A stretch of 64,000 bases of DNA from an uncultured Thermoleophilia bacterium (lineage in GTDB: Bacteria > Actinomycetota > Thermoleophilia > UBA2241): contig CAVQSP010000020.1 in NCBI GenBank assembly GCA_963715985.1, positions 226,279 to 290,278 on the forward strand, written 5' to 3'. This document shows, piece after piece, positions 8,781-53,040 of the stretch; within the stretch, counting starts at the first letter, position 1; the number at the start of each line of letters is the position of its first letter. Made by a program: the position numbers and the translations under genes. Under the pieces are notes generated by a model, which was not told the origin of the DNA, searched no databases, and saw nothing but the letters and a program-made list of their open reading frames with translations.

Positions 8781-9101
8781 TCAGGTGCGGAACATCGTCA
8801 GGAGGAAGACGAGCTCCTCCCGCGCGCGCACAGCGTGCCGCAACTCGGCCGGCATGTAGTACAGCTTGCCGGGTCCCGTCTCGTACTCGACTCCGCCGAG
8901 CACTACTGTGCCCGCTCCGCGCAATACCTGGATCACGGCCGGGACGCTGGCCGTGTGCTCACTGAGCTCCTGCCCGGGCGCCAGCGTGAAATGGATGATC
9001 TTGTGGTGGTCGTTCTCGACGATCGACTTGCTCACGATGCCCTGGTCGGCTACCTGCGTCATCTCGTCAAGGTCGACGACCAGCGGCTCTGACCCGTCCA
9101 T
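8781..9101 (-). CDS. Cupin domain protein
   Basis: GQELSEHT and MPAELRHAV cupin motifs; GGAGG SD. Confidence 0.85.
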   Translation of the reverse strand: MDGSEPLVVDLDEMTQVADQGIVSKSIVENDHHKIIHFTLAPGQELSEHTASVPAVIQVLRGAGTVVLGGVEYETGPGKLYYMPAELRHAVRAREELVFLLTMFRT

Positions 9102-9168
9102 GATTGCCTCCGTTTCGCGAACGTGTGGATGCTCCCCCTGAGACTACCCCGGCCCCACGACGCCGAAC

Positions 9169-9182
9169 TTGACCTTCGTCAG
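9169..9182. promoter_or_regulatory. Crp/Fnr-family site TTGAC-N4-GTCAG upstream of cupin gene
   Basis: TTGACCTTCGTCAG; centred about 41 bp upstream of the start implied by the minus-strand -10 TAGTCT (9141-9146). Confidence 0.45.
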
Positions 9183-9209
9183 GCGCGTTGGCGCCTGCTA
9201 TCACGGTGT

Positions 9210-9256
9210 TTGACATTCACGCAAGGGGGAGATATAGTTTGTGATGAACTTCACAG
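9210..9256 (+). promoter_or_regulatory. Sigma70 promoter with overlapping Rex/Crp-type operator
   Basis: TTGACA (9210) -17 bp- TATAGT (9233); TTGTGATGAACTTCACAG at 9239-9256. Confidence 0.8.
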
Positions 9257-9283
9257 TAATGGACTATTTTTAGGAGGGTCGCC

Positions 9284-9424
9284 ATGACGAATATCGCCAC
9301 GATCATCAAGCGTTTCTTCGAGGGTACCGGTCACGTCGTGAGCACGCCCTCCGGCGACGCTCGCGGCCACGTCCGCGAGAAGGACTTCATGACACAGGAC
9401 CTCACCGCCGGCACGCGGTTCTGA
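9284..9424 (+). CDS. Small peptide 1 (46 aa) MTNIATIIKRFFEGTGHVVSTPSGDARGHVREKDFMTQDLTAGTRF
   Basis: TAGGAGG SD, high-GC third positions, paralog of next ORF; below ORF-track cutoff. Confidence 0.8.
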   Translation: MTNIATIIKRFFEGTGHVVSTPSGDARGHVREKDFMTQDLTAGTRF

Positions 9425-9446
9425 TCCGGTCGACAGGAGGCCACCC

Positions 9447-9584
9447 ATGCGCACCAACGTCATTCGCTCGATCGGCCGGTTCTTCGCCGGCACCGGCGCC
9501 GTCATCGCCACGCCCTCGGGCGACGCCCGCGGCCACGTCAGGGTCTATGCCGACACCACTGTGACCCGAGGCCGCAGCTTCTGA
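9447..9584 (+). CDS. Small peptide 2 (45 aa) MRTNVIRSIGRFFAGTGAVIATPSGDARGHVRVYADTTVTRGRSF
   Basis: AGGAGG SD; shares RFFxGTGxVxxTPSGDARGHVR with peptide 1, with synonymous codon differences. Confidence 0.8.
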   Translation: MRTNVIRSIGRFFAGTGAVIATPSGDARGHVRVYADTTVTRGRSF

Positions 9585-9593
9585 GACACACGA

Positions 9594-9690
9594 GCTGCGT
9601 GCGACCCCCCCATTCGCACGCAGCCTCTCTCGAAGGCCTCCCGCTCCCTGGCCCGGCCCACCACGCCAGGGGATCTCGCGGGAGGCCTTC
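9594..9690 (+). terminator. Two tandem hairpins after peptide 2 (first with C7 loop)
   Basis: GCTGCGTGCGA-CCCCCCCAT-TCGCACGCAGC and GAAGGCCTCCCGC...GCGGGAGGCCTTC. Confidence 0.55.
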
Positions 9691-9726
9691 TGTATGCCTC
9701 ACCCATCGGCGCGAGTCGAGACTCGT

Positions 9727-9773
9727 TTGACAGATGATGGATTGTGGAATACATTTTGTGCAGGAAAGCACAA
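9727..9773 (+). promoter_or_regulatory. Second sigma70 promoter with overlapping Rex/Crp-type palindrome
   Basis: TTGACA (9727) -17 bp- TACATT (9750); CATTTTGTGC-AGGAAA-GCACAAAATG palindrome (core 9756-9773). Confidence 0.75.
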
Positions 9774-9803
9774 AATGCCATTGATTACGCTGAGGAGAAG
9801 GCC

Positions 9804-9962
9804 ATGAACACCCGACTGGGCCGCATGATCGATCGACTGTTCTTTGGTGGTAGCCGGTCGGATGACGTGAGCCTGCATGAGTCGCAGACCACGCGCCACG
9901 CCCGTCCCGGCGTCGAAGACCCTGCCCGGTACGACAGCGGCGCCTCGGTCTACTTCCACTGA
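9804..9962 (+). CDS. Small peptide 3 (52 aa) MNTRLGRMIDRLFFGGSRSDDVSLHESQTTRHARPGVEDPARYDSGASVYFH
   Basis: GAGGAG SD, own promoter, RLFFGG N-terminus resembling RFFxG of peptides 1/2. Confidence 0.7.
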   Translation: MNTRLGRMIDRLFFGGSRSDDVSLHESQTTRHARPGVEDPARYDSGASVYFH

Positions 9963-10012
9963 CACTCGCGGGTGCGGCCGGCTGACGCCGGCCCGCGGCT
10001 CATACGCGCGCA

Positions 10013-10064
10013 AAGGCCCCCGGCCGCTCCACCCGACGAGTCGGGTGGAGCGGCCGGGGGCCTT
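10013..10064. terminator. 25-bp perfect inverted repeat, probable bidirectional terminator
   Basis: AAGGCCCCCGGCCGCTCCACCCGAC-GA-reverse complement, between convergent genes. Confidence 0.75.
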
Positions 10065-10099
10065 CTTCACGTACGCATGTCTCTGGAAGTGATGCAGCC

Positions 10100-11413
10100 T
10101 CAGGCCGGGAAGTACTCCGGGTAGCTGCGCGGCTTGGTCTTGCGCCGCTGGTAGGTGTGCGCCAGTTCGAGGAAGATGCCCACGTCGCGCTCCAGGTCGC
10201 CCTGGGTGCCGTCGAAGTAGAAGACGCGGATGGGCATGTTCTCGAGGTCCTTCTGCAGGCTGGGGTACACGGCCTCGGTGACGATGCCGTTCATGCAGGT
10301 GAACGGGCTGATGTCGATGATGCCGTCCGCGCCCTTGCCGTACAAGTAGACGGCCTTGCCGCTGCTCAGCACCATCTCCCCCAACGCCCCGGTGTAGGGC
10401 AGGTACGGGTAGCTGAGCTCGAGCACCTGGCCGACGTCCTCGGGCTCCTCGTACCCGACGAAGTCGTCGTGGAACGGGCCGTACAGCGCGTGTTCGTCGG
10501 AGCGCATGATCCTGCTCTTCAGATAGCGGTAGGCGTTGTCCTTGGAGAAGCGGCGCTTGGTCTCGATGAGGCGGCGGCGCTGCTCGTCGTCCGTGTACCA
10601 CACCCACTCGCCGATGTCGGCCAGCCAGCACTCCCCGCCCTGCTCCTCGACCACACGGATCAGGTCGAAGTTGGAGAAGGTGTTCTGGCGGCAGAAGATC
10701 TCGCCGACCACGCCGATGAGGGGCCGCGAGCGGTCGTAGGCGGCCGGGATGGCGCGGAAGCGGTCGCGGGCGGCCAGCATGGTCGGCAGGATGGCCGCCA
10801 TACGCTCCTTGTGCGAGACGCCGTTGAGGCTGACGGCCTCGCCGACCTCCTTGAGGCTCTGATGGTAGGCCGCGTCGGTGCTGCCCTTCTCGAGCTCGTA
10901 GGGCCGCGTCTTGAGCAGGAGCTTCATGAGGATGTCCTGCGTGAGCACGGCCCGCCAGGCCGTACGGATGAGGTCGCTGGAGTAGCTGCCGATGGACGAG
11001 TAGCCGTCGCTCGAGGTGATGGTGATCACCGGCACGTCCGCGTAGCCGAGCTCGCGGAACTTGGCATTGATGAGGTGCAGGTACTGACCGAAGCGGCAAG
11101 GCCCGTTGGCCGTGGGCATGAGGAAGGCGACGTTGTCGCGACCCTCGTCCTCGATGATGCGCAGGAAGTCGCCCATGGTGATCTTCTGGGGGTAGCACTC
11201 GTCACCCGACGTCACGCGGCCACCCAGGTCGAGCGTGCGCTCGTCGGAGTCGCTCGTGGGCCACGCGTCGAAGCCGATGGAGCGGATGGCCGCGGCCAGC
11301 AGGTAGGTGCCGCCGTACGGCATCTGCGGCAGATAGAGGCGCCGGCCCTCGAGGCCGAAGTCCTTGATGGCCTGCTGGATGCGCGCGTCCTGCACGACGT
11401 CACTTGGCGACAA
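10100..11413 (-). CDS. PlsR-like reductase/dehydratase subunit (2-hydroxyacyl-CoA dehydratase-related)
   Basis: GDECYPQK, GPCRFGQY, VVGEIF, PFTCMNG motifs; overlaps end of upstream activase gene. Confidence 0.75.
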   Translation of the reverse strand: MSPSDVVQDARIQQAIKDFGLEGRRLYLPQMPYGGTYLLAAAIRSIGFDAWPTSDSDERTLDLGGRVTSGDECYPQKITMGDFLRIIEDEGRDNVAFLMPTANGPCRFGQYLHLINAKFRELGYADVPVITITSSDGYSSIGSYSSDLIRTAWRAVLTQDILMKLLLKTRPYELEKGSTDAAYHQSLKEVGEAVSLNGVSHKERMAAILPTMLAARDRFRAIPAAYDRSRPLIGVVGEIFCRQNTFSNFDLIRVVEEQGGECWLADIGEWVWYTDDEQRRRLIETKRRFSKDNAYRYLKSRIMRSDEHALYGPFHDDFVGYEEPEDVGQVLELSYPYLPYTGALGEMVLSSGKAVYLYGKGADGIIDISPFTCMNGIVTEAVYPSLQKDLENMPIRVFYFDGTQGDLERDVGIFLELAHTYQRRKTKPRSYPEYFPA

Positions 11414-14400
11414 CGGCCACCTCCTCCTCGGGGGCGCAGAGGTGCTCGCGCGCCTCGCCGGCCTGCGACCACCAGCGCAGGAACCCCTTACTGTCCAGGT
11501 AGGCCTCGCAGCGCGTCATGGCTCCGGCGTCGTTCTGATGCTCGTCGAACTGCAGTGTGAGGAACGGCTTGCCGGAGGCCTCGCGCACGTAGTGCTTGAT
11601 GTACGAGTCCGGGCCGCACTTGAAGTTGGTCATGTAGATGATGTGCAGGTGGTCCTGCCCCTGCACGTAGGTGGCGGCCTGCAGGATCTTGCGCCCGTAG
11701 TTCCAGTACATGTTGGGGACGACGGGGCTGACGTCGATGCCCTGGATGGGCAGGAAGTCCAGCGGGATCACATTGACGCCGTAGAACTTGCGCAGCTTGC
11801 GCGGGATGTCCATGTTCACGCCCTTGTCGTACATGTTGTACGGGCGCCCGATGAGCACGATGCCCAGCTCGCCGGAGCGGCGAAGGGTGTCCAGGGCTTC
11901 GTCGCCGGCGACACGCAACGCAGCGCGGAACTCGTCCTGGGCCACGAAGGCGCGGTCCAGAGCGGCGCGCAGCCGTCCCTTGCTCACTCCCAGCGTGGCG
12001 GCCATCGGAGCGAGGTCGCGGAGCAGACCCTCGCGGCCCTCGCGGAACATCACGCGCGGGGCGAGGAACTTGTCCTTGTACTGCTGGAGCGCCGGGGCGG
12101 AGCGCACCACGAAGGGCAGCGTCTGGCCCCACGGGCAGGCGTGTGAGTTGTAGGAGGTGAACTCGCTCTCCTCGTTGACCTGGTTGGGGAGGAAGACCCA
12201 GTCCACGCCCTGCTGCAGCAGCCACTGCGCATGACCGTGCGCCACGCGGATGGGGAAGCAAGGCTCGGCCACGGTGAGGTCCACCCCGGCCTCGCGGATC
12301 TGCTTGTCGCTCTCCGGCGACAGCACGGGGCGGACGCCAAGGTCCGCGAAAAGCGTCGCCCAGAAGGGCAGCCTGTCGTACGTGTACATGGCGCGCGCCA
12401 GGCCGACGGTGGGCGCGGACTCGCCCAGTCGCGCGCGCGCCTGCTCGTACGCCGCCAGGAGCTTCTCCTCGCGGAACGCTACGAGGTCGGCGATCACGGG
12501 CTCCTTGTCCACCTTGGCCGGCTTGCGATACCGGTCCGAGCACTTGTCGCCCCAATACGTCTTCTGGCCCTCGATGGTGAACTGGCGCACATCGCACTCG
12601 TTGGAGCAGGCCTTGCAGACGAAGTCGACCACGGTGTAGTCCACCTCGCCGAGGTCCCAGCCGCGGAACGAGCTGGGCTCGCCGGTGCGCTGCACGCGCT
12701 CGCGCGCGAGCAGGGCCATGCCGAGCGCGCCGATCACGCCGTTGTGCGGCGGCACGATGATCTCCTTGTCCAGGATCTGGCTGAAGGCCGCGGCCACGGC
12801 GTCGTTGTAGGCCGTGCCGCCCTGGAAGAAGATGCACTCCCCGACCGTGCGTTCGCGCACCAGGCGGTTGAGGTAGTTGGTCGCGATCGAGAAGGCGAGC
12901 CCGGCGACGAGGTCGTCGCGCCGGGCCCCACGCTGCTGGTACGCCATCACGTCCCGCTCCATGAACACCGTGCAGCGCTCCCCCAGGCGGATCGGAGCCT
13001 TGGAGCTGAGAGCCAGCTCGGCGAACTCGCCGATGATGTTGATGCCGAGCTTCTCTGCCTGCTCCTCGAGGAACGACCCCGTGCCGGCGGCGCACGCCTC
13101 GTTCATGGCGAAGTCCACGACGATGCCGTCCTGCAGGCTGATGAACTTGGAGTCCTGGCCGCCGATCTCGAAGATCGTGTCGACCTGACGGCCGATCTTG
13201 CGGCTGATGAAGTCGGCGCCGGTCTTGTGGGCGGTGATCTCGTCGGTGATGATGTCCGCCCCGCACAGCTCGCCGATGAGCTCGCGGCCCGAGCCGGTGG
13301 TGCCCACACCCAGGAGGTTGATGCGCGCCCCGAGCTCTTCGTGGATGTCCTGCAGGCCCTTGGTCACCACTTCGACCGGACGCGCGTCGGTCTTGGTGTA
13401 GATCTCCTTGATGACGCGCCCGTCGTCGTCGATGACCACGAGATTCGTGGACACCGAGCCGATGTCGATACCCATGAAGACGTCGATCGGCGCGCCGTTG
13501 CCTGCGAACTCGAAGGGTTCGGCCATGTCGCGCAGCAGCAGCACCTTGTCCATGGAGAGCGGCTCGGTCACGGGGAAGTCGGCGGCCGGCAGGCGGCTGG
13601 CGTCCAGCGTGGACATGGCCGCGCGCACCGACTCGTAGTCGGCCTCGATGAGCGCCGCTCCCACGGCGCCGAGCTCGGCGTGATACTCGGGGATGAAGAG
13701 GTCGCCGGGCTCCAGGTCGAAGGCCTCCAGGAGCGCCTGCACCGCGCCCTTGTTGGCGGCTACGCCGCCGATGAAGGCGATGGGCGGCTCCACGACCTTG
13801 CCCTTGGCGATGGTGCCCTTGAAGTTGCGCATCACGGCGTCGCAGAGGCCGCGCAGCACCTCGGGCGGCTGATAGCCCTTCTGCTGGGCGTGGATCATGT
13901 CCGACTTGGCGAACACGCTGCAGCGCCCGGCGATACTGGCGGCCTTGCCGGCATCCAGCACGATGTCGCCGACGTCCTCGATGTCGTAGAGCAGGCGGCT
14001 GGCCTGCTGGTCCATGAAGGAGCCGGTGCCGGCGGCGCAGTCGCCGTTCGACTGATAGTCCGTGATGCCGTGGCAACGCGCCTCGTCGTCCGGCTCGAGC
14101 CTGATGAACTTGGAGGTCTCGCCACCCATCTCGAAGATCGTCCGCGTCTCCGGATACAGAGCGCTGACGCCGCGCGTGATCGCCTTGAACTCGTTCTCGA
14201 AGCTGGCCGTGAGGGCCTGCCCGATGAGCCGGCCGCCCGACCCGGTGACCCGCACGCCGGCGATCTTGCCCTCGGGCAGCACGGCGACGAGCTCGTCGAG
14301 CAGCGCCTGAGTGGCTGCGCCCGGGCTGCCCTTGATGCGACGGTAGCGCGCCACGAGCACGGGCCGGCCGTCGACCATGGTCAGACCGTCGGCGGGAAGC

Positions 14401-14516
14401 TCGAAGAGTTCGGGATGCGCGGAGAGGAGATCGGAGTAGAGAGTGAGGTCCTCAGCCTCTCCGGCCAAGGCCGCTTTGAGGCTGATGCAGCCGATGTCGA
14501 TACCGAGAGAAGTCAT
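11400..14516 (-). CDS. PlsA/Ger-like protein: two CoA-activase (BadF/BcrAD) ATPase domains plus DUF2229
   Basis: GIDIG x2, CAAGTGSF x2, RCSVF/RCTVF, CxxCxNxC, CFPIRVAHG, FKCGPDS. Confidence 0.85.
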   Translation of the reverse strand: MTSLGIDIGCISLKAALAGEAEDLTLYSDLLSAHPELFELPADGLTMVDGRPVLVARYRRIKGSPGAATQALLDELVAVLPEGKIAGVRVTGSGGRLIGQALTASFENEFKAITRGVSALYPETRTIFEMGGETSKFIRLEPDDEARCHGITDYQSNGDCAAGTGSFMDQQASRLLYDIEDVGDIVLDAGKAASIAGRCSVFAKSDMIHAQQKGYQPPEVLRGLCDAVMRNFKGTIAKGKVVEPPIAFIGGVAANKGAVQALLEAFDLEPGDLFIPEYHAELGAVGAALIEADYESVRAAMSTLDASRLPAADFPVTEPLSMDKVLLLRDMAEPFEFAGNGAPIDVFMGIDIGSVSTNLVVIDDDGRVIKEIYTKTDARPVEVVTKGLQDIHEELGARINLLGVGTTGSGRELIGELCGADIITDEITAHKTGADFISRKIGRQVDTIFEIGGQDSKFISLQDGIVVDFAMNEACAAGTGSFLEEQAEKLGINIIGEFAELALSSKAPIRLGERCTVFMERDVMAYQQRGARRDDLVAGLAFSIATNYLNRLVRERTVGECIFFQGGTAYNDAVAAAFSQILDKEIIVPPHNGVIGALGMALLARERVQRTGEPSSFRGWDLGEVDYTVVDFVCKACSNECDVRQFTIEGQKTYWGDKCSDRYRKPAKVDKEPVIADLVAFREEKLLAAYEQARARLGESAPTVGLARAMYTYDRLPFWATLFADLGVRPVLSPESDKQIREAGVDLTVAEPCFPIRVAHGHAQWLLQQGVDWVFLPNQVNEESEFTSYNSHACPWGQTLPFVVRSAPALQQYKDKFLAPRVMFREGREGLLRDLAPMAATLGVSKGRLRAALDRAFVAQDEFRAALRVAGDEALDTLRRSGELGIVLIGRPYNMYDKGVNMDIPRKLRKFYGVNVIPLDFLPIQGIDVSPVVPNMYWNYGRKILQAATYVQGQDHLHIIYMTNFKCGPDSYIKHYVREASGKPFLTLQFDEHQNDAGAMTRCEAYLDSKGFLRWWSQAGEAREHLCAPEEEVAVVAK

Positions 14517-18647: not shown

Positions 18648-20039
18648 TCAGGGAACCGGCGCGTGCTCGCAGGCCTTGTGCCCTGCGCTCTCTTCCTTCT
18701 CGGCGCTCAGACAGCTCCAGATGGGGCTGTACAGGTGATCGACCTTCCGGGAGTACTCGTCGAGCTCGTCCTGGAGGTCGGTGATCATGACGTCGCCGCC
18801 CGGGTGCGTAGGCTTGGCTCCGGTGGCCGCCATGATCTCACGGGCCTGATTGGGGTTGTCGATCCACATGCACGGCATCAGCAGGTTGTGGTTGAACGGC
18901 TGCCGCCGCCGGATCTCCTTGAAGAAGTCCGAGTTGAACGCCTCGAGGAGACTGACGTCGCGGATGTTGTCGGTGGCGAAGTGCGTGAAGATGCACGGCT
19001 CCACCCAGCCGCCGCTGTTGATGTGCATGTAGTGCTTGCCGGCGATGCAGCCGTTGACCCACGGGGCGTCGCCCCAGAAGTCGATCGGGAAGATCGGCTT
19101 GGTGTCGCGGATGCGGTGGATGTCGATGCGGAACTGGTTCCGCTCCTCCGCCGTCAGCATCATGCTGGTGTCAGGGTCCCGGCCCACCGGCATGTAGAGG
19201 AAGTGCCACGCCAACATGGCGCCCTTGGCGATGAGCGGATCGACGAAATCGTCGCTCACGATGGCCTTCCACGTGTCGCGCGTGACGGTGCACGAGTAGC
19301 CGAACAACACGCCGGCATCGCCCAGATGGTCCATGATGTCCATGACCTGGTCGTGCACGCCGGGGCCGCGACGGTGGTCCGTCAGCTCCGGCGAGCCCTC
19401 GAGGCTGAGCATGGGGGCGATGTTGCCGATCTTGGCGAGCTCGTCGATGGTGTCGTGGTCGAGGAGCGTGCCGTTGGTGAACACCTGGAAGTAGGCGTCC
19501 TTGTTCTCCTGGGCGAAGTCGAGCAGTTCGTCCCACATGAACGGCTCGCCGCCCAGCAGGGTGAACAGATAGACGCCCATGTCGTTGCCCTCGTCCACGA
19601 TCTTCTGCATCAGCTTGCGGTCGAGGTCCTGGTCGGGTGCGTACTCCGCCGCATAGCAGCCGTCACAGGTGAGATTGCAGCGCATGGTGGGACTCATGAG
19701 GATCGTCGTCGGCGCCTTGCAGCCCGTCTCGTCGATCAGTTCCCTACGCTTTGCCACGCCACGAAGAAGGGTGTTGACGATAAGACATTCAATAAAACGG
19801 TCGCGGCAGCGCGGGCTGAGTCTGGACGAGACGTGCCTTGCGATAGTGAGCGCCGGGTGGTCCTCCTGGACCTTCTCTGCGACGAATCGCACTGAGCCCT
19901 TGTACTGGTCGGGGGTGATCTTCTCGGCCAGGTTGAATGCCTTGACGATCTTGGTCTTGTCGTCACTGGACGCCAACTTGAGCATCTGGTTGATCACTTG
20001 CCTCTGCACCGCGGTGTAAAGGCCGTCCGTACGGCTCAT
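18648..20039 (-). CDS. Radical SAM protein with SPASM/twitch-type C-terminal Cys
   Basis: CNLTCDGC, GGEP, GCIAG..EPCIF..PCMWIDNP; AGGAG SD. Confidence 0.9.
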   Translation of the reverse strand: MSRTDGLYTAVQRQVINQMLKLASSDDKTKIVKAFNLAEKITPDQYKGSVRFVAEKVQEDHPALTIARHVSSRLSPRCRDRFIECLIVNTLLRGVAKRRELIDETGCKAPTTILMSPTMRCNLTCDGCYAAEYAPDQDLDRKLMQKIVDEGNDMGVYLFTLLGGEPFMWDELLDFAQENKDAYFQVFTNGTLLDHDTIDELAKIGNIAPMLSLEGSPELTDHRRGPGVHDQVMDIMDHLGDAGVLFGYSCTVTRDTWKAIVSDDFVDPLIAKGAMLAWHFLYMPVGRDPDTSMMLTAEERNQFRIDIHRIRDTKPIFPIDFWGDAPWVNGCIAGKHYMHINSGGWVEPCIFTHFATDNIRDVSLLEAFNSDFFKEIRRRQPFNHNLLMPCMWIDNPNQAREIMAATGAKPTHPGGDVMITDLQDELDEYSRKVDHLYSPIWSCLSAEKEESAGHKACEHAPVP

Positions 20040-20364: not shown

Positions 20365-20445
20365 TGATAAGGGCAAACCTGTCGTGAGGCAGGGACGCAA
20401 AGCCAGAGGTCTTGGATGTTCAAGATAGCTCGGTTGCCGGATTCG
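20365..20445 (+). ncRNA. c-di-GMP-I (GEMM-I) riboswitch
   Basis: GGGCAAACCTGTC-GTGA-GGCAGGGACGCAAAGCC..GGTCT..AGATAGC..GGTTGCCG matches GEMM-I core with GNRA loop; G at the position equivalent to Vc2 G20. Confidence 0.9.
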
Positions 20446-20588
20446 ATCTTCGCCCTTGCGAACGTCGCCTTCTGCCCCGGACCTCAGCTTCACGCACCCG
20501 TCGCACGCCACCGGTGACCCACGTGATCTACCGCCGCGACCTCCAGGGGCCGGCCGGTCAAGGGAGTACCGAAGTGGAGGCGAAAGCG

Positions 20589-22223
20589 ATGAACCTCAGG
20601 ATCATCGTCCTGGCCATCGTGGCGGTGAGTCTCCTGATGCTGCCCGGTGTGGCGTTGGCCGACAACGAGCCGGCCGGCAAGATCGACACCAGCGTCCAGA
20701 CCGTTCTCGAGGCGACCGGCGGCAACGTGGCCGTGCCGGTCATGGTCCAGGCGCCCGGGGCACTCGACCAGGTGCAGGCGACGATCCCGCTGGGCGTGGA
20801 CGTCACGCAGATCCCGATCGTGGACAGCCTCGCCGCGTATCTGACGCCCGAGGAGATCAAGGCGCTTGGGAAGGCGAGCTTCGTCACGCAGATCGTCGCC
20901 GACAACCTCGTCTTCGGCATGAGCTACCAGAGCACGATGGACGTCACCAACCTGAGCATCGGGCTCGGCGATGTGGTCGCCCCACGTGACGGCGGGCCGG
21001 ATGGCGCGGGCGTGACCGTCGCGATCGTCGACAGCGGCATCGCCACGAACACCGATCTCGCCGCCAGCCGCATCGTCGGCTGGAAGGACTTCGTGAACGG
21101 GCAGGAGACCCCGTACGACGACGCCGGCCACGGCACCTTCGTCGCCGGCCTCATCGCCGGAGACGGCACCGCTTCGCTGCCGCTCGAGAACGGCGGCACG
21201 GCGAGCGTCCAGTTCCGCGGCGTCGCGCCGGCGGCCAACGTCGTCGGCATCAAGGTCCTCGACGAGGTCGGCCAGGGCCGCACCTCGGCGCTCATCGCGG
21301 GCATCGCCTGGGCGATCGCGCACAGGAACGACTACGACATCCGCGTCCTCAACCTCTCGATCGGCGGCAACCCCGTGTGCACGGTGACCAAAGACCCGGT
21401 CGCCCTGGCGGTCGAGGCCGCATGGCGCAGTGGCATCACGGTCGTGTGCGCGGCGGGCAACGAGGGTTCCTTCGGGTCGGGAGGCGTCCTCTCCCCCGGC
21501 AACGACCCCTTCGTCATCACCGTCGGCGCGACCGACAGCCAGGAGACGTCAGCGACCGCGGACGACACCGTGGCCAAGTACAGCTCCGCCGGTCCGACGC
21601 TCTTCGACGAGATCGCCAAACCAGATGTGGTGGCGCCCGGCAACCGGCTCGTGTCGGTGCGCACCGTCGGTTCGTACATCGACACGAACTTCCCCGCCAA
21701 CGTCATCCTGCTGGAGAGCTACGAGACGAGCGCCAGCGCAGGCGCGGCGTCCAACTACCTCATGCTCTCCGGCACCAGCACCTCCTGCCCGGTCGTCGCC
21801 GGCGCCGCCGCTCTCATGATCGGCGAGGATCCGACCCTGACCCCTGACGACGTCAAGGTGCGCCTGATGGGCACCGCCGACCCGGTCGCCGGCGCCACTG
21901 CCGACCAGCAAGGGGCCGGCCTGATCGACGTCGACGAGGCTCTCCAGAGCCCGGCACACTCCACCGGCTACGCCCTCTCTGCGTACCTCGGAGACGGCAA
22001 GAAGCACTTCAAGAACGGCGACTACAACAAATGGGAAAAGCGCGTGTGGGAGAAGTACGGGTGGACGAAGTACAAGTGGACCAAGTACAAGTGGACGAAG
22101 TACAAGTGGACGAAGTACAAGTGGACTGAGATCGCCTGGACCAAGTACAAGTGGACCAAGTACAAGTGGACGGAGTACGAGTGGGCCAAGTACAAGTGGA
22201 CCATCCTGATCGAGGGCCAGTAA
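20589..22223 (+). CDS. Secreted S8 (subtilisin/AprX-like) serine protease with C-terminal Trp pentapeptide repeats
   Basis: Signal peptide ending ALA; triad IVDSG, GHGT, SGTS; AAGN; tail of WTKYK repeats. Confidence 0.92.
   Translation: MNLRIIVLAIVAVSLLMLPGVALADNEPAGKIDTSVQTVLEATGGNVAVPVMVQAPGALDQVQATIPLGVDVTQIPIVDSLAAYLTPEEIKALGKASFVTQIVADNLVFGMSYQSTMDVTNLSIGLGDVVAPRDGGPDGAGVTVAIVDSGIATNTDLAASRIVGWKDFVNGQETPYDDAGHGTFVAGLIAGDGTASLPLENGGTASVQFRGVAPAANVVGIKVLDEVGQGRTSALIAGIAWAIAHRNDYDIRVLNLSIGGNPVCTVTKDPVALAVEAAWRSGITVVCAAGNEGSFGSGGVLSPGNDPFVITVGATDSQETSATADDTVAKYSSAGPTLFDEIAKPDVVAPGNRLVSVRTVGSYIDTNFPANVILLESYETSASAGAASNYLMLSGTSTSCPVVAGAAALMIGEDPTLTPDDVKVRLMGTADPVAGATADQQGAGLIDVDEALQSPAHSTGYALSAYLGDGKKHFKNGDYNKWEKRVWEKYGWTKYKWTKYKWTKYKWTKYKWTEIAWTKYKWTKYKWTEYEWAKYKWTILIEGQ
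22032..22202 (+). repeat. 15-bp coding tandem repeat (TGGAC[C/G]AAGTACAAG) encoding W-x4 repeats
   Basis: 12 Trp at exact 5-residue spacing. Confidence 0.95.
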
Positions 22224-38752: not shown

Positions 38753-39464
38753 CCGGCGCAGCAACGCTAGCGAGCGGGGCCCCGAAGGTGCACCGCTCAT
38801 TAGCGCGAAGACGGTCATCGCCGCCCGCGCCGGTCGCGAGCTCAAGGACGGGCAGATCATCAACCTCGGGATCGGTCTGCCGACGCTCATCGCAAACTAC
38901 GTCCCCGAGGGCGTCGACGTCGTCATCCAGACCGAGAACGGCGGCATCGGCGTCGGCCCCGCGCCCGAGCCGGGCTGCGAGGACCGCGACCGGGCCAACG
39001 CCGGCAACCAGCCCATCACGCTCATCCCGGGCGGCAGCTACTTCGACTCCGCCACGTCCTTCGCCATGATCCGCGGCGGCCACCTGGACGCCACGTTCCT
39101 CGGCACGCTGCAGGTCGACGAGAAGGGCAACATCGCCAACTGGATCGTGCCCGGCAAGATGCTCGCCGGCATGGGCGGCGCCATGGACCTGGTCACCGGC
39201 GCCAAGACCGTGTACATCGTCAGCGAGCACTGCTCCAAGGACGGCGCGTCCAAGCTCATGAAGGAGTGCACGTTCCCGCTCACGGGCGCCGAAGAGGCGG
39301 ACGTGATCATCACCGAGCGCGCCCTGTTCAGGCGTGTTCCCGCGACGGGCTGGGTACTGGAAGAGGTCGCCGCTGGGTACACCCTCGACGACATCGCCGC
39401 CTGTACGGACATGGCCTACACGGTGGCAGAGCAGGTCAAGCTCGACGCTTTCGGCGGCGAGTGA
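38745..39464 (+). CDS. Family I CoA-transferase subunit B
   Basis: NLGIGLPT, catalytic TENG, IRGGH, GMGGAMDL. Confidence 0.9.
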   Translation: MASRRSNASERGPEGAPLISAKTVIAARAGRELKDGQIINLGIGLPTLIANYVPEGVDVVIQTENGGIGVGPAPEPGCEDRDRANAGNQPITLIPGGSYFDSATSFAMIRGGHLDATFLGTLQVDEKGNIANWIVPGKMLAGMGGAMDLVTGAKTVYIVSEHCSKDGASKLMKECTFPLTGAEEADVIITERALFRRVPATGWVLEEVAAGYTLDDIAACTDMAYTVAEQVKLDAFGGE

Positions 39465-39492
39465 ACCGCGAGGAAGTCAAGGGAGCTCGGTC

Positions 39493-39705
39493 ATGCCCGA
39501 CCTCAAGAAGAAGTTCAGCCGCAGCGACTGGAAGGACTGCTGCGGCAAAGGCTGCAAGAAGTGCGAGATCGCGCAGACGTACATCGGCGTGTACGGCAAG
39601 TCCAAAGGACTCGAGAAGCTGAACGAGGACCGCGCTGCCATGCACGCCAAGAAGGGCGGCAAGCTCAAGGGCGGCAAGAAGAAGGGCGGCGGCAAGAAGT
39701 CGTGA
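39493..39705 (+). CDS. Small Cys-motif, Lys-rich protein (70 aa)
   Basis: DCCGKGCKKC motif, KKGGKLKGGKKKGGGKKS tail; stop overlaps ppx start (GTGA). Confidence 0.7.
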   Translation: MPDLKKKFSRSDWKDCCGKGCKKCEIAQTYIGVYGKSKGLEKLNEDRAAMHAKKGGKLKGGKKKGGGKKS

Positions 39706-41273
39706 TCGCCGCCGCAGCCGAGGTCCTCGGCTGCCTGGACATCGGCACCAACTCGGTGCGCCTGATGGTGGTGCGCATCGAGCCGGGCGGCACGTGGAGC
39801 ACGCTCACCGTGCAGAAGGAGCCCGTGCGGCTGGGCGAGGGCGAGTTCGGTGAGCGGAGCGCCCTGCAACCGCAGGCCATGGACCGCGCGGTGCTCGTCT
39901 GCCGCACCTTCGTCGAACTCGCGCGCGCGCACGGCGCGACCAGCTTCGTGGCCGCCGCCACCTCGGCCACACGCGAGGCCGCCAACCAGACGGTCTTCGT
40001 GCGGCGCCTGCACGAAGAGGCCGGGCTTGACGTGCACGTCGTCTCGGGCAAGGAGGAGGCCCGCCTCATCTTCCTGGGCCTCCTCAGCAGGATCCATCTC
40101 GGTGATCAGCGCGCGGTGGTCATCGACATCGGCGGCGGCAGCACCGAGGTGGCTCTCGGCACCGCCGACGGGGCCGCCTACCTCGAGTCGCTGCGCCTCG
40201 GCGCGATACGCCTGAGCAGCGAGTTCCCCGAGGTCCTCGGCGGTCGCGCGGTCTCCGGCAAGGTGTACGAGGACATGCGCCGCCGCGTGCAGGTCGAGTC
40301 GGCGCGCGTGCGCCGCGACCTCGCCGGGCGCCGCATCGACGTGGCCTACGGCACCTCGGGCACCATCCGCAACCTCGCCAGCGTCATCGTGCGGGTCCTC
40401 AGGGACGGAGCTCCGCAGCGGGAGGACACGATCACGCTGGCCGAGCTGCGCAAGATCAGCAAGCTGCTCCGCGGGCTCGACCTCGAGGAGCGCCGGCGCG
40501 TGGCCGGCCTCAACCCGCTGCGCGCCGACATCGTGGTGGCCGGCGCGGCCATCCTCGACGCGGTGATGGAGGACCTCGGCCTGAAGGAGATCCGCGCCAT
40601 CGCCGAGTGCGGGTTGCGCGAAGGCCTGGTCGTGGACCATCTCGCGCGCGCCGCCGCGCCCGGCTCTCCGGGCTCCCCCACGGTACGCGAGCGCAGCGTG
40701 GTGCAGCTGGCGCGCGCGTGCGCGTTCGACGAGGAGCACGCGCGGCACGTCGCCGCGCTGGCCCTGGAGCTCTTCGACTCGTCGCGGGCGGCCGGCCTGC
40801 ATCGCTACGGCGCCGCGGAGCGCGAGCTCTTCGCGCACGCGGCGCTGCTGCACGACATCGGCACCTTCCTCAGCTATGCGGACCACCACCTGCACAGCTA
40901 CTACCTCATCCGCCATGCAGACCTCGTGGGGTTCGACGAGAGCGAGATCGCGGCCATGGCGGCTATCGCGCTCTTCCACCGCAAGTCACGCCCGGGCGGC
41001 AGGCACGAGGCGTTCGAGGGGCTCGACAGGCCGTGGCGCTCGCGGGTGCGCGTGCTGAGCGCGCTGCTGCGCCTGGCCGAGTACCTCGACCGCGGCCACG
41101 CCCGGGCCGTGGCGCATGCCGCCCTCCAACGCGACGCCGGGAGGGCGCTCGTCCTCGCGGTACAGCCGGCGTCGGACTGGCACCTGGAGCGCTGGCGTCT
41201 GGAGAACCGCCGGGAGACGCTGGAGAAGGCGCTCGGGCGCGACCTGACCGTGATCGAGGTGGACGGCGCCTGA
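39702..41273 (+). CDS. ppx: Ppx/GppA exopolyphosphatase with HD domain
   Basis: DIGTNS, ATSATREA, DIGGGSTE, GLREG, LLHDIG. Confidence 0.92.
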   Translation: MIAAAAEVLGCLDIGTNSVRLMVVRIEPGGTWSTLTVQKEPVRLGEGEFGERSALQPQAMDRAVLVCRTFVELARAHGATSFVAAATSATREAANQTVFVRRLHEEAGLDVHVVSGKEEARLIFLGLLSRIHLGDQRAVVIDIGGGSTEVALGTADGAAYLESLRLGAIRLSSEFPEVLGGRAVSGKVYEDMRRRVQVESARVRRDLAGRRIDVAYGTSGTIRNLASVIVRVLRDGAPQREDTITLAELRKISKLLRGLDLEERRRVAGLNPLRADIVVAGAAILDAVMEDLGLKEIRAIAECGLREGLVVDHLARAAAPGSPGSPTVRERSVVQLARACAFDEEHARHVAALALELFDSSRAAGLHRYGAAERELFAHAALLHDIGTFLSYADHHLHSYYLIRHADLVGFDESEIAAMAAIALFHRKSRPGGRHEAFEGLDRPWRSRVRVLSALLRLAEYLDRGHARAVAHAALQRDAGRALVLAVQPASDWHLERWRLENRRETLEKALGRDLTVIEVDGA

Positions 41274-51900: not shown

Positions 51901-51946
51901 TTGACAGGAGGTGTTCGAAGGTGGAGAATCGTGACAGATTTCACAG
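51901..51946 (+). promoter_or_regulatory. Promoter with Rex-type operator upstream of rex/hydrogenase operon
   Basis: TTGACA -17 bp- GAGAAT; TCGTGACAGATTTCACAG at 51929-51946. Confidence 0.7.
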
Positions 51947-51999: not shown

Positions 52000-53040
52000 G
52001 TGGTATCGAGGAAGACCGTTTCGCGCATGAGCCGCTACAGGCGGCTACTATCGTCCCTTCGCGCCGAAGGCGTGGCGAGTATCTATTCGCACCAGCTCGC
52101 CCGCCACGCCGCCGTCAGCGCCGCGCAGGTGCGCCGCGACCTCATGGTGATCGGGTACTCCGGCAGCCCCAATCGCGGCTACGACGTGGACGCCTGCATC
52201 GCCAGCATCGGCACCTTCCTGGACGGCACCGCGCGCCAGGAGGTCGCCCTGGTCGGCGTGGGCAACCTGGGGCGCGCCGTGCTCGCCCACCTCGAGGACA
52301 AGACGCCGTCGGTCGGCATCGTGGCGGCGTTCGACGCCGACCCCGAGCTGGCCGGCACCATCATCCACGGCGTGCGCTGCTTCGCCGCCGCCGACATGGA
52401 GGATTTGGTCCGCGACCTGGGCGTGCAGATCGCCGTGCTCACCGTGCCCGGCGACCAGGTACAGGCGGTGGCCGACGTGCTGGTGCGCGCAGGGGTCAAG
52501 AGCCTCATCAGCTTCTCCCCCGTCCCGCTGCACCTGCCCAACGACATCTTCGTGGAGTACATGGACATCACGGCGGCGCTCGAGTCGGCCGCATACTTCG
52601 CGCGGCTCGGCGGCGAAGCGGAAGAGGCCGTGAGCGCCGCCCAGATCGAGCCCATGGTGAAGAAACTGGAATCCCTGCTCGCGAGGTCGAAGATGAAACT
52701 GGAAGAGTTGGCCGAGAGCATCGGCGCTCGTGTGATCACTCCCGGCGGCCCCGGCGGCACCGAGGTCACGCGCATCTACGCAGGCGACCGCGTCAGCGAC
52801 CTTCTCAACGAAGCCACGGACAAGACGCTGCTGGTCAGCAACCTGGCCAGTGTCCAGATGCTGCGCGTGGCCGAGATCATGGACGTGCCGGGCATCTGCT
52901 TCGTCAACGGCGTGGAGCCGGACGACGAGGTGGTGGAGCTGGCCCGCGAGAGCGGGACGCTGCTGCTCGTCTCGCCGGCCGGCGTGTTCGAGACCTGCGG
53001 CCTCATCTACCGGTATCTCTCCGAGGAGAGGAGCGCCTGA
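52000..53040 (+). CDS. rex: Redox-sensing repressor Rex fused to a C-terminal DRTGG domain
   Basis: SRYRRLL, QVRRDL, GY, GVGNLG; then AGDRVSDLL..LLVSNL..ICFVNG. Confidence 0.88.
   Translation: MVSRKTVSRMSRYRRLLSSLRAEGVASIYSHQLARHAAVSAAQVRRDLMVIGYSGSPNRGYDVDACIASIGTFLDGTARQEVALVGVGNLGRAVLAHLEDKTPSVGIVAAFDADPELAGTIIHGVRCFAAADMEDLVRDLGVQIAVLTVPGDQVQAVADVLVRAGVKSLISFSPVPLHLPNDIFVEYMDITAALESAAYFARLGGEAEEAVSAAQIEPMVKKLESLLARSKMKLEELAESIGARVITPGGPGGTEVTRIYAGDRVSDLLNEATDKTLLVSNLASVQMLRVAEIMDVPGICFVNGVEPDDEVVELARESGTLLLVSPAGVFETCGLIYRYLSEERSA

Follow-up and report, generated by a model that had tools for sequence, protein, structure and literature searches.

What occupies the 998 bp that separate a cupin gene from the convergent gene beyond it in an uncultured Thermoleophilia bacterium? 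The gap (9102-10099) is bounded by the cupin start at 9101 and by the convergent gene's stop at 10100 and belongs to a 64-kb window, the whole stretch of DNA analyzed, whose positions serve as coordinates throughout and whose G+C content is 69%. The window is located on contig 20 of a 4.35-Mb metagenome-assembled genome (MAG; labelled G000) with 70% G+C, 88.8% completeness and 7.3% contamination. An earlier reading of this DNA, the original prediction, had claimed three open reading frames (ORFs) of 45 to 52 amino acids with Shine-Dalgarno (SD) sequences in a gap of about 1 kb. Indeed, three small plus-strand ORFs, p1, p2 and p3, were found there, encoding 46, 45 and 52 amino acids and arranged in two separately terminated units. 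That all three are protein-coding genes under purifying selection is well supported by sequence comparison. On balance, we favor the reading that the two units are cassettes gated by Rex, which release small effector proteins when NADH accumulates.

p1 (9284-9424, plus strand) encodes a micro-protein of type A, with a KDFMxxDLT motif that is near-invariant in its family, and p2 (9447-9584, plus strand), which has its own AGGAGG, encodes one of type B, with the invariant pattern FFxG...V..TPSGDARGH. The G+C content at third codon positions (GC3) of p1, p2 and p3 was 0.85, 0.89 and 0.77, respectively, matching the genome's genes. Synonymous codon differences had been claimed for the motif shared by p1 and p2, and in fact, all 4 base differences over the 11 codons of TPSGDARGHVR are synonymous; judged from the two sequences, p1 and p2 are clear paralogues. 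The check proposed with that claim (homologues, the ratio of nonsynonymous to synonymous substitution rates [dN/dS], and promoter conservation) was run and gave relatives with dN/dS values of 0.19 to 0.29 and a conserved promoter and operator. The median dN/dS was 0.19 for type B (143 of 153 pairs usable) and 0.29 for type A (14 of 15 pairs). The entropies of the three codon positions in type B were 19.9, 8.1 and 37.6, the third position being the most variable, and each of the other five frames across this region holds stops in 4 to 13 of 18 sequences. The alignments of both types contain length differences and no frame breaks.

A search with p1 gave significant matches in 21 of 24 same-genus genomes and nothing significant (best E value, 0.04) in 16 genomes that belong to other families of this class. 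Out of 89 genomes of the order, 56, G000 among them, were matched by a family profile of 32 members; by genus, these were 47 of 53 genomes in g1, 7 of 13 in g23 and 1 of 3 in g24, and the profile matched none of the 19 genomes of the other eight genera. The p1/p2 family is present in 3 of the 11 genera of one uncultured Thermoleophilia family. All but one of the 35 related loci come from MAGs labelled uncultured Thermoleophilia, Actinomycetota or Actinomycetes; the remaining one is a 3.5-kb contig labelled Proteobacteria. Most genomes have the tandem pair, with type A upstream and type B downstream, and three (G004, G007 and G010) have type B alone. Within type B there are two C-terminal types, and the last 12 to 18 residues are variable compared with the conserved N-terminal helix and mid-section. 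The observation that all peptides end in or next to Phe is correct for the window and does not extend to the relatives, many of which end in GR, GH, AR or RV.

p3 (9804-9962, plus strand; 52 amino acids), with its conserved MNTRLGRMID..FFGG and EDRARYDSG, was assigned to a separate micro-protein family. The ORF list gives a GTG at 9744 as its start; we preferred the ATG at 9804 behind GAGGAG, the equivalent of which is the start in seven of eight database relatives of p3. Eight metagenome protein clusters were matched by p3, and among 53 other genomes of the genus one significant match was obtained, in G056, with 64% identity. G056 has the same three-ORF layout, its p3 counterpart is preceded by its own TTGACG-17-TACACT promoter and the box TGTGCTCAACTTCACA, and the two orthologues gave a dN/dS of 0.27. 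p3 was not found in any of 17 syntenic loci. When the p3 family was compared with the p1/p2 family by profile comparison (hhalign), the alignment was collinear from residue 1 with an E value of 0.0064, but the probability was 5.9%. The original claim of three related peptides is thus correct for p1 and p2, and a relation of p3 to them was not established. From its sequence, p3 would represent a separate, rarer family that shares just an N-terminal pattern with p1 and p2, and homology was not accepted.

A fourth micro-protein cassette was seen at two other loci, L141 (G002 contig 2, around 197221) and L152 (G014 contig 311, around 2660). In it, TTGACA-17-TATA(T/C)T is succeeded by a TTGTG-N8-CACAA box, then by a leader rich in T, GAAGGAGG and a 40-amino-acid ORF reading MFDRT.TAIGTVFSGVS...RQR...PRR, a design shared with the cassettes of the window. 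By eye, R4, I9, F13 and G15 are in register from Met1 in types A and B, p3 and this fourth type; such a common register across the four types would be a lead, not a result.

None of the proteins belongs to a family that we could name, in line with the original prediction, which recognized none: no Pfam, NCBIfam, PHROGs, PADLOC or Protein Data Bank (PDB) family was matched. Pfam, NCBIfam and PADLOC returned nothing for p1, p2 and p3 at an E value of ≤1, PHROGs gave one chance-level match, for p3 (E = 0.22), a PDB sequence search with the family profile had a best E value of 0.25, and the ESM Atlas gave no usable match. Among 5.8 billion clustered proteins, p2 found 19 clusters, unnamed or hypothetical. 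The family profile retrieved 38 proteins from 1.84 billion representatives; 36 of these have 35 to 77 residues, and the remaining two, with 1239 and 1414 amino acids, have short repeated matches. No paper on Rex-controlled micro-proteins or on this family was found in the literature searched, which is weak evidence of absence, as papers are not searchable by sequence.

The ORFs are embedded in two units, each with promoter, operator, ORF(s) and a strong hairpin, and we therefore read the gap as two complete cassettes. Promoter P1 (9210-9238, plus strand) consists of TTGACA, 17 bp and TATAGT and is near the sigma-70 consensus; P2 (9727-9755, plus strand) consists of TTGACA, 17 bp and TACATT and has the G056 promoter named above as its counterpart. 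TTGACA-N17-TAnnnT occurs twice in the window (9210 and 9727) versus 0.01 expected, and the two promoter regions have 44 to 45% G+C versus 69% for the window. Operator 1, TTGTGATGAACTTCACAG (9239-9256; no strand assigned), is an 18-bp palindrome with the right arm CACAG that lies directly after the -10 hexamer, over the expected transcription start. Operator 2, TTGTGCAGGAAAGCACAA (9756-9773; no strand assigned), is an exact TTGTG-N8-CACAA. Only two TGTG-N8-CACA sites are present in the window (9240-9255 and 9757-9772; 0.77 expected), and each begins 2 bases past a -10 hexamer. Two TTGACA-17 promoters, each with a box over the start, had been predicted; both are present, and they are unique in the window.

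This arrangement is conserved. Exactly one TGTG-N8-CACA was found in each of 19 relatives' 3-kb loci (19/19), always directly after the promoter, which has a TTGAC(A/T) -35, a spacing of 17 to 18 bp and a TAnnnT-like -10 in the 19 loci (one is cut inside the -35 by the contig end); the promoter alignment was made for 16 relatives. Behind the box come a T-rich leader and then GGAGGGTCGCC-ATG. Of 7 g23/g24 loci, 4 from genus g23 have the exact box, and another from g23 has it with a single mismatch. The leader of cassette 1 (9257-9283, plus strand) is T-rich and unstructured (fold z-score, +1.24), with the SD AGGAGGG and a conserved GTCGCC spacer, and both leaders are less structured than shuffled controls. 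A terminator-like hairpin (9632-9690, plus strand; z = -6.6) follows p2, with a smaller hairpin (9592-9627) before it and UUCUGUAU after it. It was missed by a simple terminator scan since it has no run of 5 T, and a hairpin is present at the same place in G056. The p3 unit ends with a 24-bp perfect hairpin (10013-10064; no strand assigned; z = -7.9), which faces the convergent gene. Rfam gave only subthreshold matches on the terminator hairpins in the window and nothing at gathering score in five related box-bearing loci.

High expression had been inferred in the original prediction; both p1/p2 and p3 were present in contigs of four RNA libraries, which belong to 3 studies and were used out of six listed with a small share of matching sequence words. 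Two contigs lie on the p3 unit, one of 251 nt from X15 (9769-10019, 4 differences) and one of 234 nt from X17 (9784-10017, 6 differences). Two others bridge p1 and p2, one of 197 nt from X16 (9356-9552, 2 differences) and one of 199 nt from X18 (9286-9484, 5 differences). Cover in the cassette region was restricted to 9286-9552 and 9769-10019. Within 9150-10100, the stretches 9150-9277, 9566-9757 and 10046-10100 had no cover, the absence of a contig proving nothing, and no RNA contig covered the promoter regions, the inter-unit spacer or the flanks. Further X16 and X18 contigs of one study (depth, 31 to 39) match the conserved core alone, and their loose ends read as type-B C termini of other species, e.g., RVPNGTMFD and NVPIDTMYD. 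The contigs fit two short, abundant transcripts, with p1 and p2 cotranscribed.

Which regulator reads the palindrome? Like the Rex operators (ROP) of Streptomyces coelicolor, Bacillus subtilis and Staphylococcus aureus, it has 18 bp, TTGTG/CACAA arms and the same spacing. Among 27 cassette sites, which were selected by TGTG-N8-CACA alone, 26 have the flanking T and 25 have the flanking A. Since the flanking T/A is near-invariant and the inner positions are variable, the cassette motif is TTGTG-N8-CACAA. The likeness extends to the regulons of Gram-positive bacteria: here, too, the operator overlaps strong promoters, the motif precedes cydA, ald, gap and a rex-family gene, and a Rex protein is encoded. 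cydABCD is a Rex target in S. coelicolor, and YdiH is Rex. In the available portions of two reports, cyd operons, alanine dehydrogenase, gap and rex itself are given as established Rex targets elsewhere (PMC2883068, PMC6018154), and the first of the two gives TTGTGAA-W4-TTCACAA as the Rex box consensus (PMC2883068).

The exact TTGTG-N8-CACAA occurs at 6 sites in the 4.35 Mb of G000, operator 2 among them, versus about 0.74 expected from composition, and 50 times in 15 genomes of the genus versus 6 for the reversed control. The shorter TGTG-N8-CACA gave a mild excess in G000, with 32 sites, 18 of them intergenic, versus 19 and 7 for the reversed control. When G000 alone was scored with the Rex consensus, the six best sites (12 of 14 positions) were all intergenic, with mixed genes downstream. 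The motif was found before cydA in G001 and G015 (confirmed by Pfam) and, by sequence likeness, in G021 and G000 (one mismatch in G000). In G000, it also precedes the glyceraldehyde-3-phosphate dehydrogenase (GAPDH) gene, 15 nt ahead of the ATG, and the alanine dehydrogenase/PNT gene. Exact or one-mismatch motifs precede multiheme cytochromes (G000, G021) and hemerythrin (G015), and in five genomes the motif lies in the spacer between serA and a class-V aminotransferase gene. A strong promoter combined with the box was found in only five cases in G000: P1, P2, a long Rex paralogue, the duplicate of the latter on contig 22, and an operon for an HdrA-like flavin adenine dinucleotide (FAD)/Fe-S oxidoreductase. 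The HdrA-like operon and the long Rex paralogue have the same promoter-box design with one or two arm mismatches.

The canonical Rex of G000 is a protein of 213 amino acids, encoded on contig 11 downstream of hemL. It scored 256 bits against the NCBIfam Rex model NF003995 (cutoff, 126), aligned to solved Rex chains with E values of 1e-49 to 1e-40, and has the conserved DNA-reading stretch QIRKDFSYFGEFGTRGVGY. A Rex match at an E value of ≤1e-20 was obtained in 30 of 31 genomes of the genus, G000 included. The long paralogue (346 amino acids; 52000-53040, plus strand) has the Rex domains in residues 2 to 202 and a C-terminal extension of about 140 amino acids; it is 32% identical to canonical Rex, has a diverged DNA-reading stretch and lies ahead of a gene with weak matches to [FeFe]-hydrogenase-like and Fe-S domains. 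The promoter region of the paralogue (51901-51946, plus strand) is designed like P1 and P2, with TTGACA-17-GAGAAT and then CGTGACAGATTTCACA. The original prediction had placed the same box type near 51929; a box is indeed present there, behind TTGACA-17-GAGAAT and before a Rex-family gene, but it reads TCGTGACAGATTTCACAG, with CGTGA instead of TGTGA as its left arm. TTGACA-17-GAGAAT-C-GTGACAGATTTCACA is kept nearly letter for letter in 19 relatives' loci (among L086-L107). A second, different palindrome follows the 51929 box, TTTGTGCCGTAACGAACAC here and GTTCGTTCTGTAACGAAC in most relatives, suggesting that there are two operators or that the paralogue has its own specificity. The long Rex paralogue is absent from G003, G004, G007, G010, G017, G020 and G024. 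Peptides and box are nonetheless retained in each of these genomes except G024, which makes canonical Rex the likely reader; operators 1 and 2 are probably not read by the long Rex paralogue. At the end of contig 22 of G000 (around 38966-40100), the paralogue's promoter and gene are repeated in three frame-shifted pieces with 91 to 99% identity; this duplicate may come from redundancy of the assembly, or the bin (contamination, 7.3%) may contain a second strain.

Taken from sequence, then, the palindrome is probably read by Rex, and the earlier claim of Rex-type operators is supported by the motif's occurrence ahead of cydA, gap, ald and an Hdr-like operon and by the presence of a canonical Rex; it is not supported at the inner A/T positions, which are not conserved. 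Several findings speak against a Rex-gated release of effector proteins. Unlike in Rex operators elsewhere, the inner AA/TT of the textbook TTGTGAA-W4-TTCACAA is not retained in these putative operators: the first inner position of the 27 cassette sites is C in 17, A in 5 and T in 5, and its mirror is A in 21 and T in 4. The cydA box lies upstream of the -35 and not over the start, so one mechanism does not fit all sites. The RNA evidence consists of assembled contigs without ends or strand, with DNA carry-over possible. On the protein side, the AlphaFold2 predictions made from the family alignments have low confidence (predicted local distance difference test [pLDDT] scores of 56 for p2 and 59.5 for p3), and the amphipathic moment of the N-terminal helix of p2 does not beat shuffled sequences (0.32).

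In other actinobacteria (mycobacteria and corynebacteria), CRP/GlxR regulators also target cydA, gap and serC-type aminotransferase genes, and the content of the regulon, a further point of the same kind, therefore leaves room for a CRP-type reader. A regulator of the CRP/FNR family, sensing cAMP or oxygen, would then read the palindrome, and the cassettes would follow that signal. TGTG-N8-CACA is the CRP core spacing too, HTH_Crp_2 matched seven stretches of the genome, and the boxes of cydA and of the serA/aminotransferase spacer are placed at the -35 or upstream of it, an activator position. But only 2 of the 7 matches are CRP/FNR-like, one with an FNR-like ETLSR helix and the other with an in-frame stop; the remaining five are ArsR-, MarR-, DtxR- or GntR-like. 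The FNR-type ETLSR helix reads TTGAT-N4-ATCAA. A convincing CRP was not found in the HTH_Crp_2 scan of G000, although a CRP gene could have been missed because the genome is 88.8% complete. Moreover, only 5 of 27 sites have the fifth-position A of TGTGA, versus 26 and 25 with the Rex-typical outer T and A, promoters this near to the consensus do not require an activator, a box over the start argues for repression, and the regulon is small, with 32 TGTG-N8-CACA sites in 4.35 Mb. A CRP/FNR-type reader of the palindrome is thus rather unlikely, what remains being left to some other reader, and that the cassettes follow cAMP or oxygen is judged unlikely as well.

Given Rex-type control, what would the proteins do? 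p1, p2 and p3 contain no cysteine, signal peptide or hydrophobic membrane span; they have 6 to 7 K+R and 2 to 7 D+E, and the mean hydrophobicity of their N-terminal 18 residues is -0.24 to 0.23. The hydrophobic membrane-spanning run expected of a type I toxin or membrane micro-protein is absent from all three. A role as leader peptide or attenuator was rejected because no codirectional gene follows either unit. AlphaFold2 predicted a helix at residues 2 to 20 in p2 and 4 to 13 in p3, the rest being unstructured, and the amphipathic moment of the helix beats that of shuffled sequences for p1 (0.0025) and p3 (0.0125). The family-specific motifs TPSGDARGH (type B), KDFMxxDLT (type A) and EDRARYDSG (p3) lie in the predicted disordered tails. 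A soluble helix at the N terminus, with an invariant short motif in the disordered tail behind it, would be expected of a small protein folding onto a larger partner. Partner binding is therefore the most likely mode of action, and the models suggest that the proteins are partner-binding effectors.

Are the partners encoded next door? The cupin gene (8781-9101, minus strand; 106 amino acids) is the divergent neighbor of the cassettes. The gene convergent with the p3 unit (10100-11413, minus strand; 437 amino acids) has a weak DUF2229 match, and its partner in the region 10100-14516 (minus strand) encodes a protein of 1038 amino acids with two BcrAD_BadFG ATPase domains and DUF2229. In domain content alone, the composition of this pair resembles the anaerobic plasmalogen synthase PlsA/PlsR. 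A p1/p2 heterodimer, or a p2 oligomer, could act on the cupin or on this PlsA/PlsR-like pair of ATP-dependent reductases and adjust lipid/redox chemistry under anoxia. p1 and p2 are cotranscribed paralogues with different invariant motifs, the order cupin, peptides, DUF2229-like protein and double activase-DUF2229 protein is identical in 17 of 17 loci, and plasmalogen formation by plsA/plsR is described as an anaerobic trait in the available part of one report (PMC9702350). However, the whole order of ABC-F, HhH-GPD glycosylase, cupin, peptides, DUF2229-like gene, double activase-DUF2229 gene, ORF and amidase is the same in 17 of 17 16-kb loci, and because this neighborhood is syntenic as a whole, the adjacency of the peptides to the cupin and the PlsA/PlsR-like pair is uninformative. 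The peptide genes are convergent with the reductase genes, with a terminator between them, and G004, G007 and G010 have type B alone. With the PlsA/PlsR assignment made from domain content only, action on these neighbors appears improbable. The same holds for the original suggestion of a PlsAR-like enzyme or the hydrogenase as target, which is connected to the peptides by position alone.

Less probable still is that the peptides are precursors of ribosomally synthesized and posttranslationally modified peptides (RiPPs), as had also been suggested, with the N-terminal helix as leader, the variable C terminus as core and a maturase nearby. Like RiPP precursors, the proteins are small, with a conserved N-terminal helix and mid-section and more variable last 12 to 18 residues, which come in two types in type B; genes for a radical-SAM/SPASM protein (18648-20039) and an S8 peptidase (20412-22223) lie 9 to 11 kb away, and the small cupin gene is the divergent neighbor in 17 of 17 loci. 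Unlike RiPP precursors, they have no cysteine and no adjacent maturase, transporter or immunity gene; both cassettes are closed by terminators, and the immediate neighbors are the cupin gene and the DUF2229/activase pair. The idea has no backing because no maturase accompanies the peptides: the best score of the radical-SAM protein was 77.6 bits versus a curated peptide-maturase cutoff of 500. Furthermore, the most invariant motifs (TPSGDARGH, KDFMxxDLT and EDRARYDSG) lie inside the supposed core, unlike in most hypervariable cores. Chance ORFs over a conserved noncoding RNA or regulatory region are very improbable: gene callers rarely annotate them and p2 found just 19 clusters in 5.8 billion sequences, but the third-position variability, the dN/dS values of 0.19 to 0.29, the absence of frame breaks, the stops in the five other frames of type B (4 to 13 of 18 sequences), the strong SD at the right distance and the lack of an Rfam match at gathering score in five related loci all contradict this.

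For Rex-gated release, the course of events would be as follows. Cassette 1 comprises P1, operator 1, p1, p2 and their terminator, and cassette 2 comprises P2, operator 2, p3 and its terminator. Being near the sigma-70 consensus in a genome of 70% G+C, P1 and P2 should fire strongly unaided. As long as NAD+ dominates, a dimer of the canonical 213-amino-acid Rex would sit on the palindrome and block RNA polymerase. Once oxygen or another electron acceptor is exhausted, e.g., in waterlogged soil, NADH would build up and Rex would be released. Short unstructured leaders and strong ribosome-binding sites would then allow a burst of three small soluble proteins, which would bind and modulate one or more larger partners under reductive stress. 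In this scheme, the anatomy of the cassettes, their conservation, the selection on the coding sequences, their presence in RNA libraries and the link of the motif to classical Rex targets are shown; we infer that Rex binds, that NADH induces the cassettes, that much protein is made and that it binds partners. A further, tentative possibility is that the shared N-terminal helix docks all micro-protein types onto one hub (the ribosome, RNA polymerase, a membrane or a respiratory complex), that interchangeable disordered tails deliver different motifs, and that promoter-operator-leader-ORF cassettes duplicate and diversify as units.

Other observations concern the surroundings of the cassettes and of the motif. 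Between the cupin start and P1, a block (9144-9185) consists of TACCC, about 22 bases and CTTGACCTT(C/G)GTCAG, with TGAC-N4-GTCA as an inverted repeat inside; the block is retained in all 17 aligned loci (the window and 16 relatives), a few of which have single-base variants, and may be the promoter or operator of the cupin gene. The radical-SAM/SPASM protein has 463 amino acids and lies below every curated maturase or heme-synthesis cutoff; the gene for the S8 (mycosin-like) peptidase is divergent from it, with a 370-bp gap between the two, and in G010 the pair directly adjoins the ORF that follows the activase. In G013 and G011 (L021, L034/L041), the neighboring activase and ABC-F genes are in many frame-shifted pieces, and in G011 the type-B ORF is extended to 93 amino acids and type A is broken; these broken frames are probably long-read assembly errors, not biology. 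In the serA/aminotransferase spacer (L136 in G042, L147 in G064 and L149 in G001; also G002 and G015), the box TTGTGCATCTGGACACAA overlaps the -35. The leader behind it (about 200 nt; ATGCG.G..C....CACATCGCCCGTCGTGACGGCTGG...) is conserved, matched no Rfam family at gathering score and may be an undescribed cis-regulatory RNA. On contig 11 of G000 (141059-141521) and in L140 (G019), a conserved leader (TGATTGCGG...CCGTCCTGTACAGTGTTTT) lies behind the box TTGTGACATTCTGCACAA, and next comes the ORF of a 107-amino-acid protein without a Pfam match (MEEL.LAVPG.WADHHVL...); the same box is present in G001 and G064.

Among known systems, the closest likenesses are partial. Cytochrome bd has small subunits of the CydX/CydH type, hydrophobic peptides that cross the membrane once and have their genes in the cyd operon; like them, p1, p2 and p3 are small proteins putatively coregulated with cydAB, but they are charged and soluble-looking and are encoded in units of their own far from cydA. 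MntS of enterobacteria has 42 residues and is repressed by MntR. Like p1 to p3 in the proposed scheme, it is a protein of about 40 to 50 residues whose gene is freed by a metabolite-sensing regulator and which is thought to bind a larger protein; the available part of one report describes it as a small protein induced at low manganese (PMC4361602). In contrast to MntS, with which they share no sequence relation, the proteins described here would respond to NADH/NAD+ and come as multicopy paralogous cassettes with a shared N-terminal pattern. They also set this system apart from the Rex regulons described so far, as its best-promoted members are proteins of about 50 residues of no known family; none like it was found in the literature searched. 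What the gap holds appears to be a new small-protein family, or at least two families with a cassette design in common, controlled by a redox switch of a known type.

Rex regulons have been described as enzymes and respiratory complexes; here, the best promoters with a Rex-type operator belong to genes for proteins of about 50 residues, most of which are overlooked by gene callers. These proteins are conserved and under selection, and environmental RNA libraries contain their sequences. If confirmed, this would add a posttranslational arm to NADH/NAD+ sensing. The promoter-operator-leader module could also serve as a tight redox-responsive expression part in high-G+C actinobacteria. If the hub reading is true, the micro-proteins would be the most strongly promoted Rex output in an abundant uncultured wetland and soil Thermoleophilia lineage. 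Confirmation would provide a handle on how uncultured Thermoleophilia, which are common in wetland and soil metagenomes, survive anoxia.

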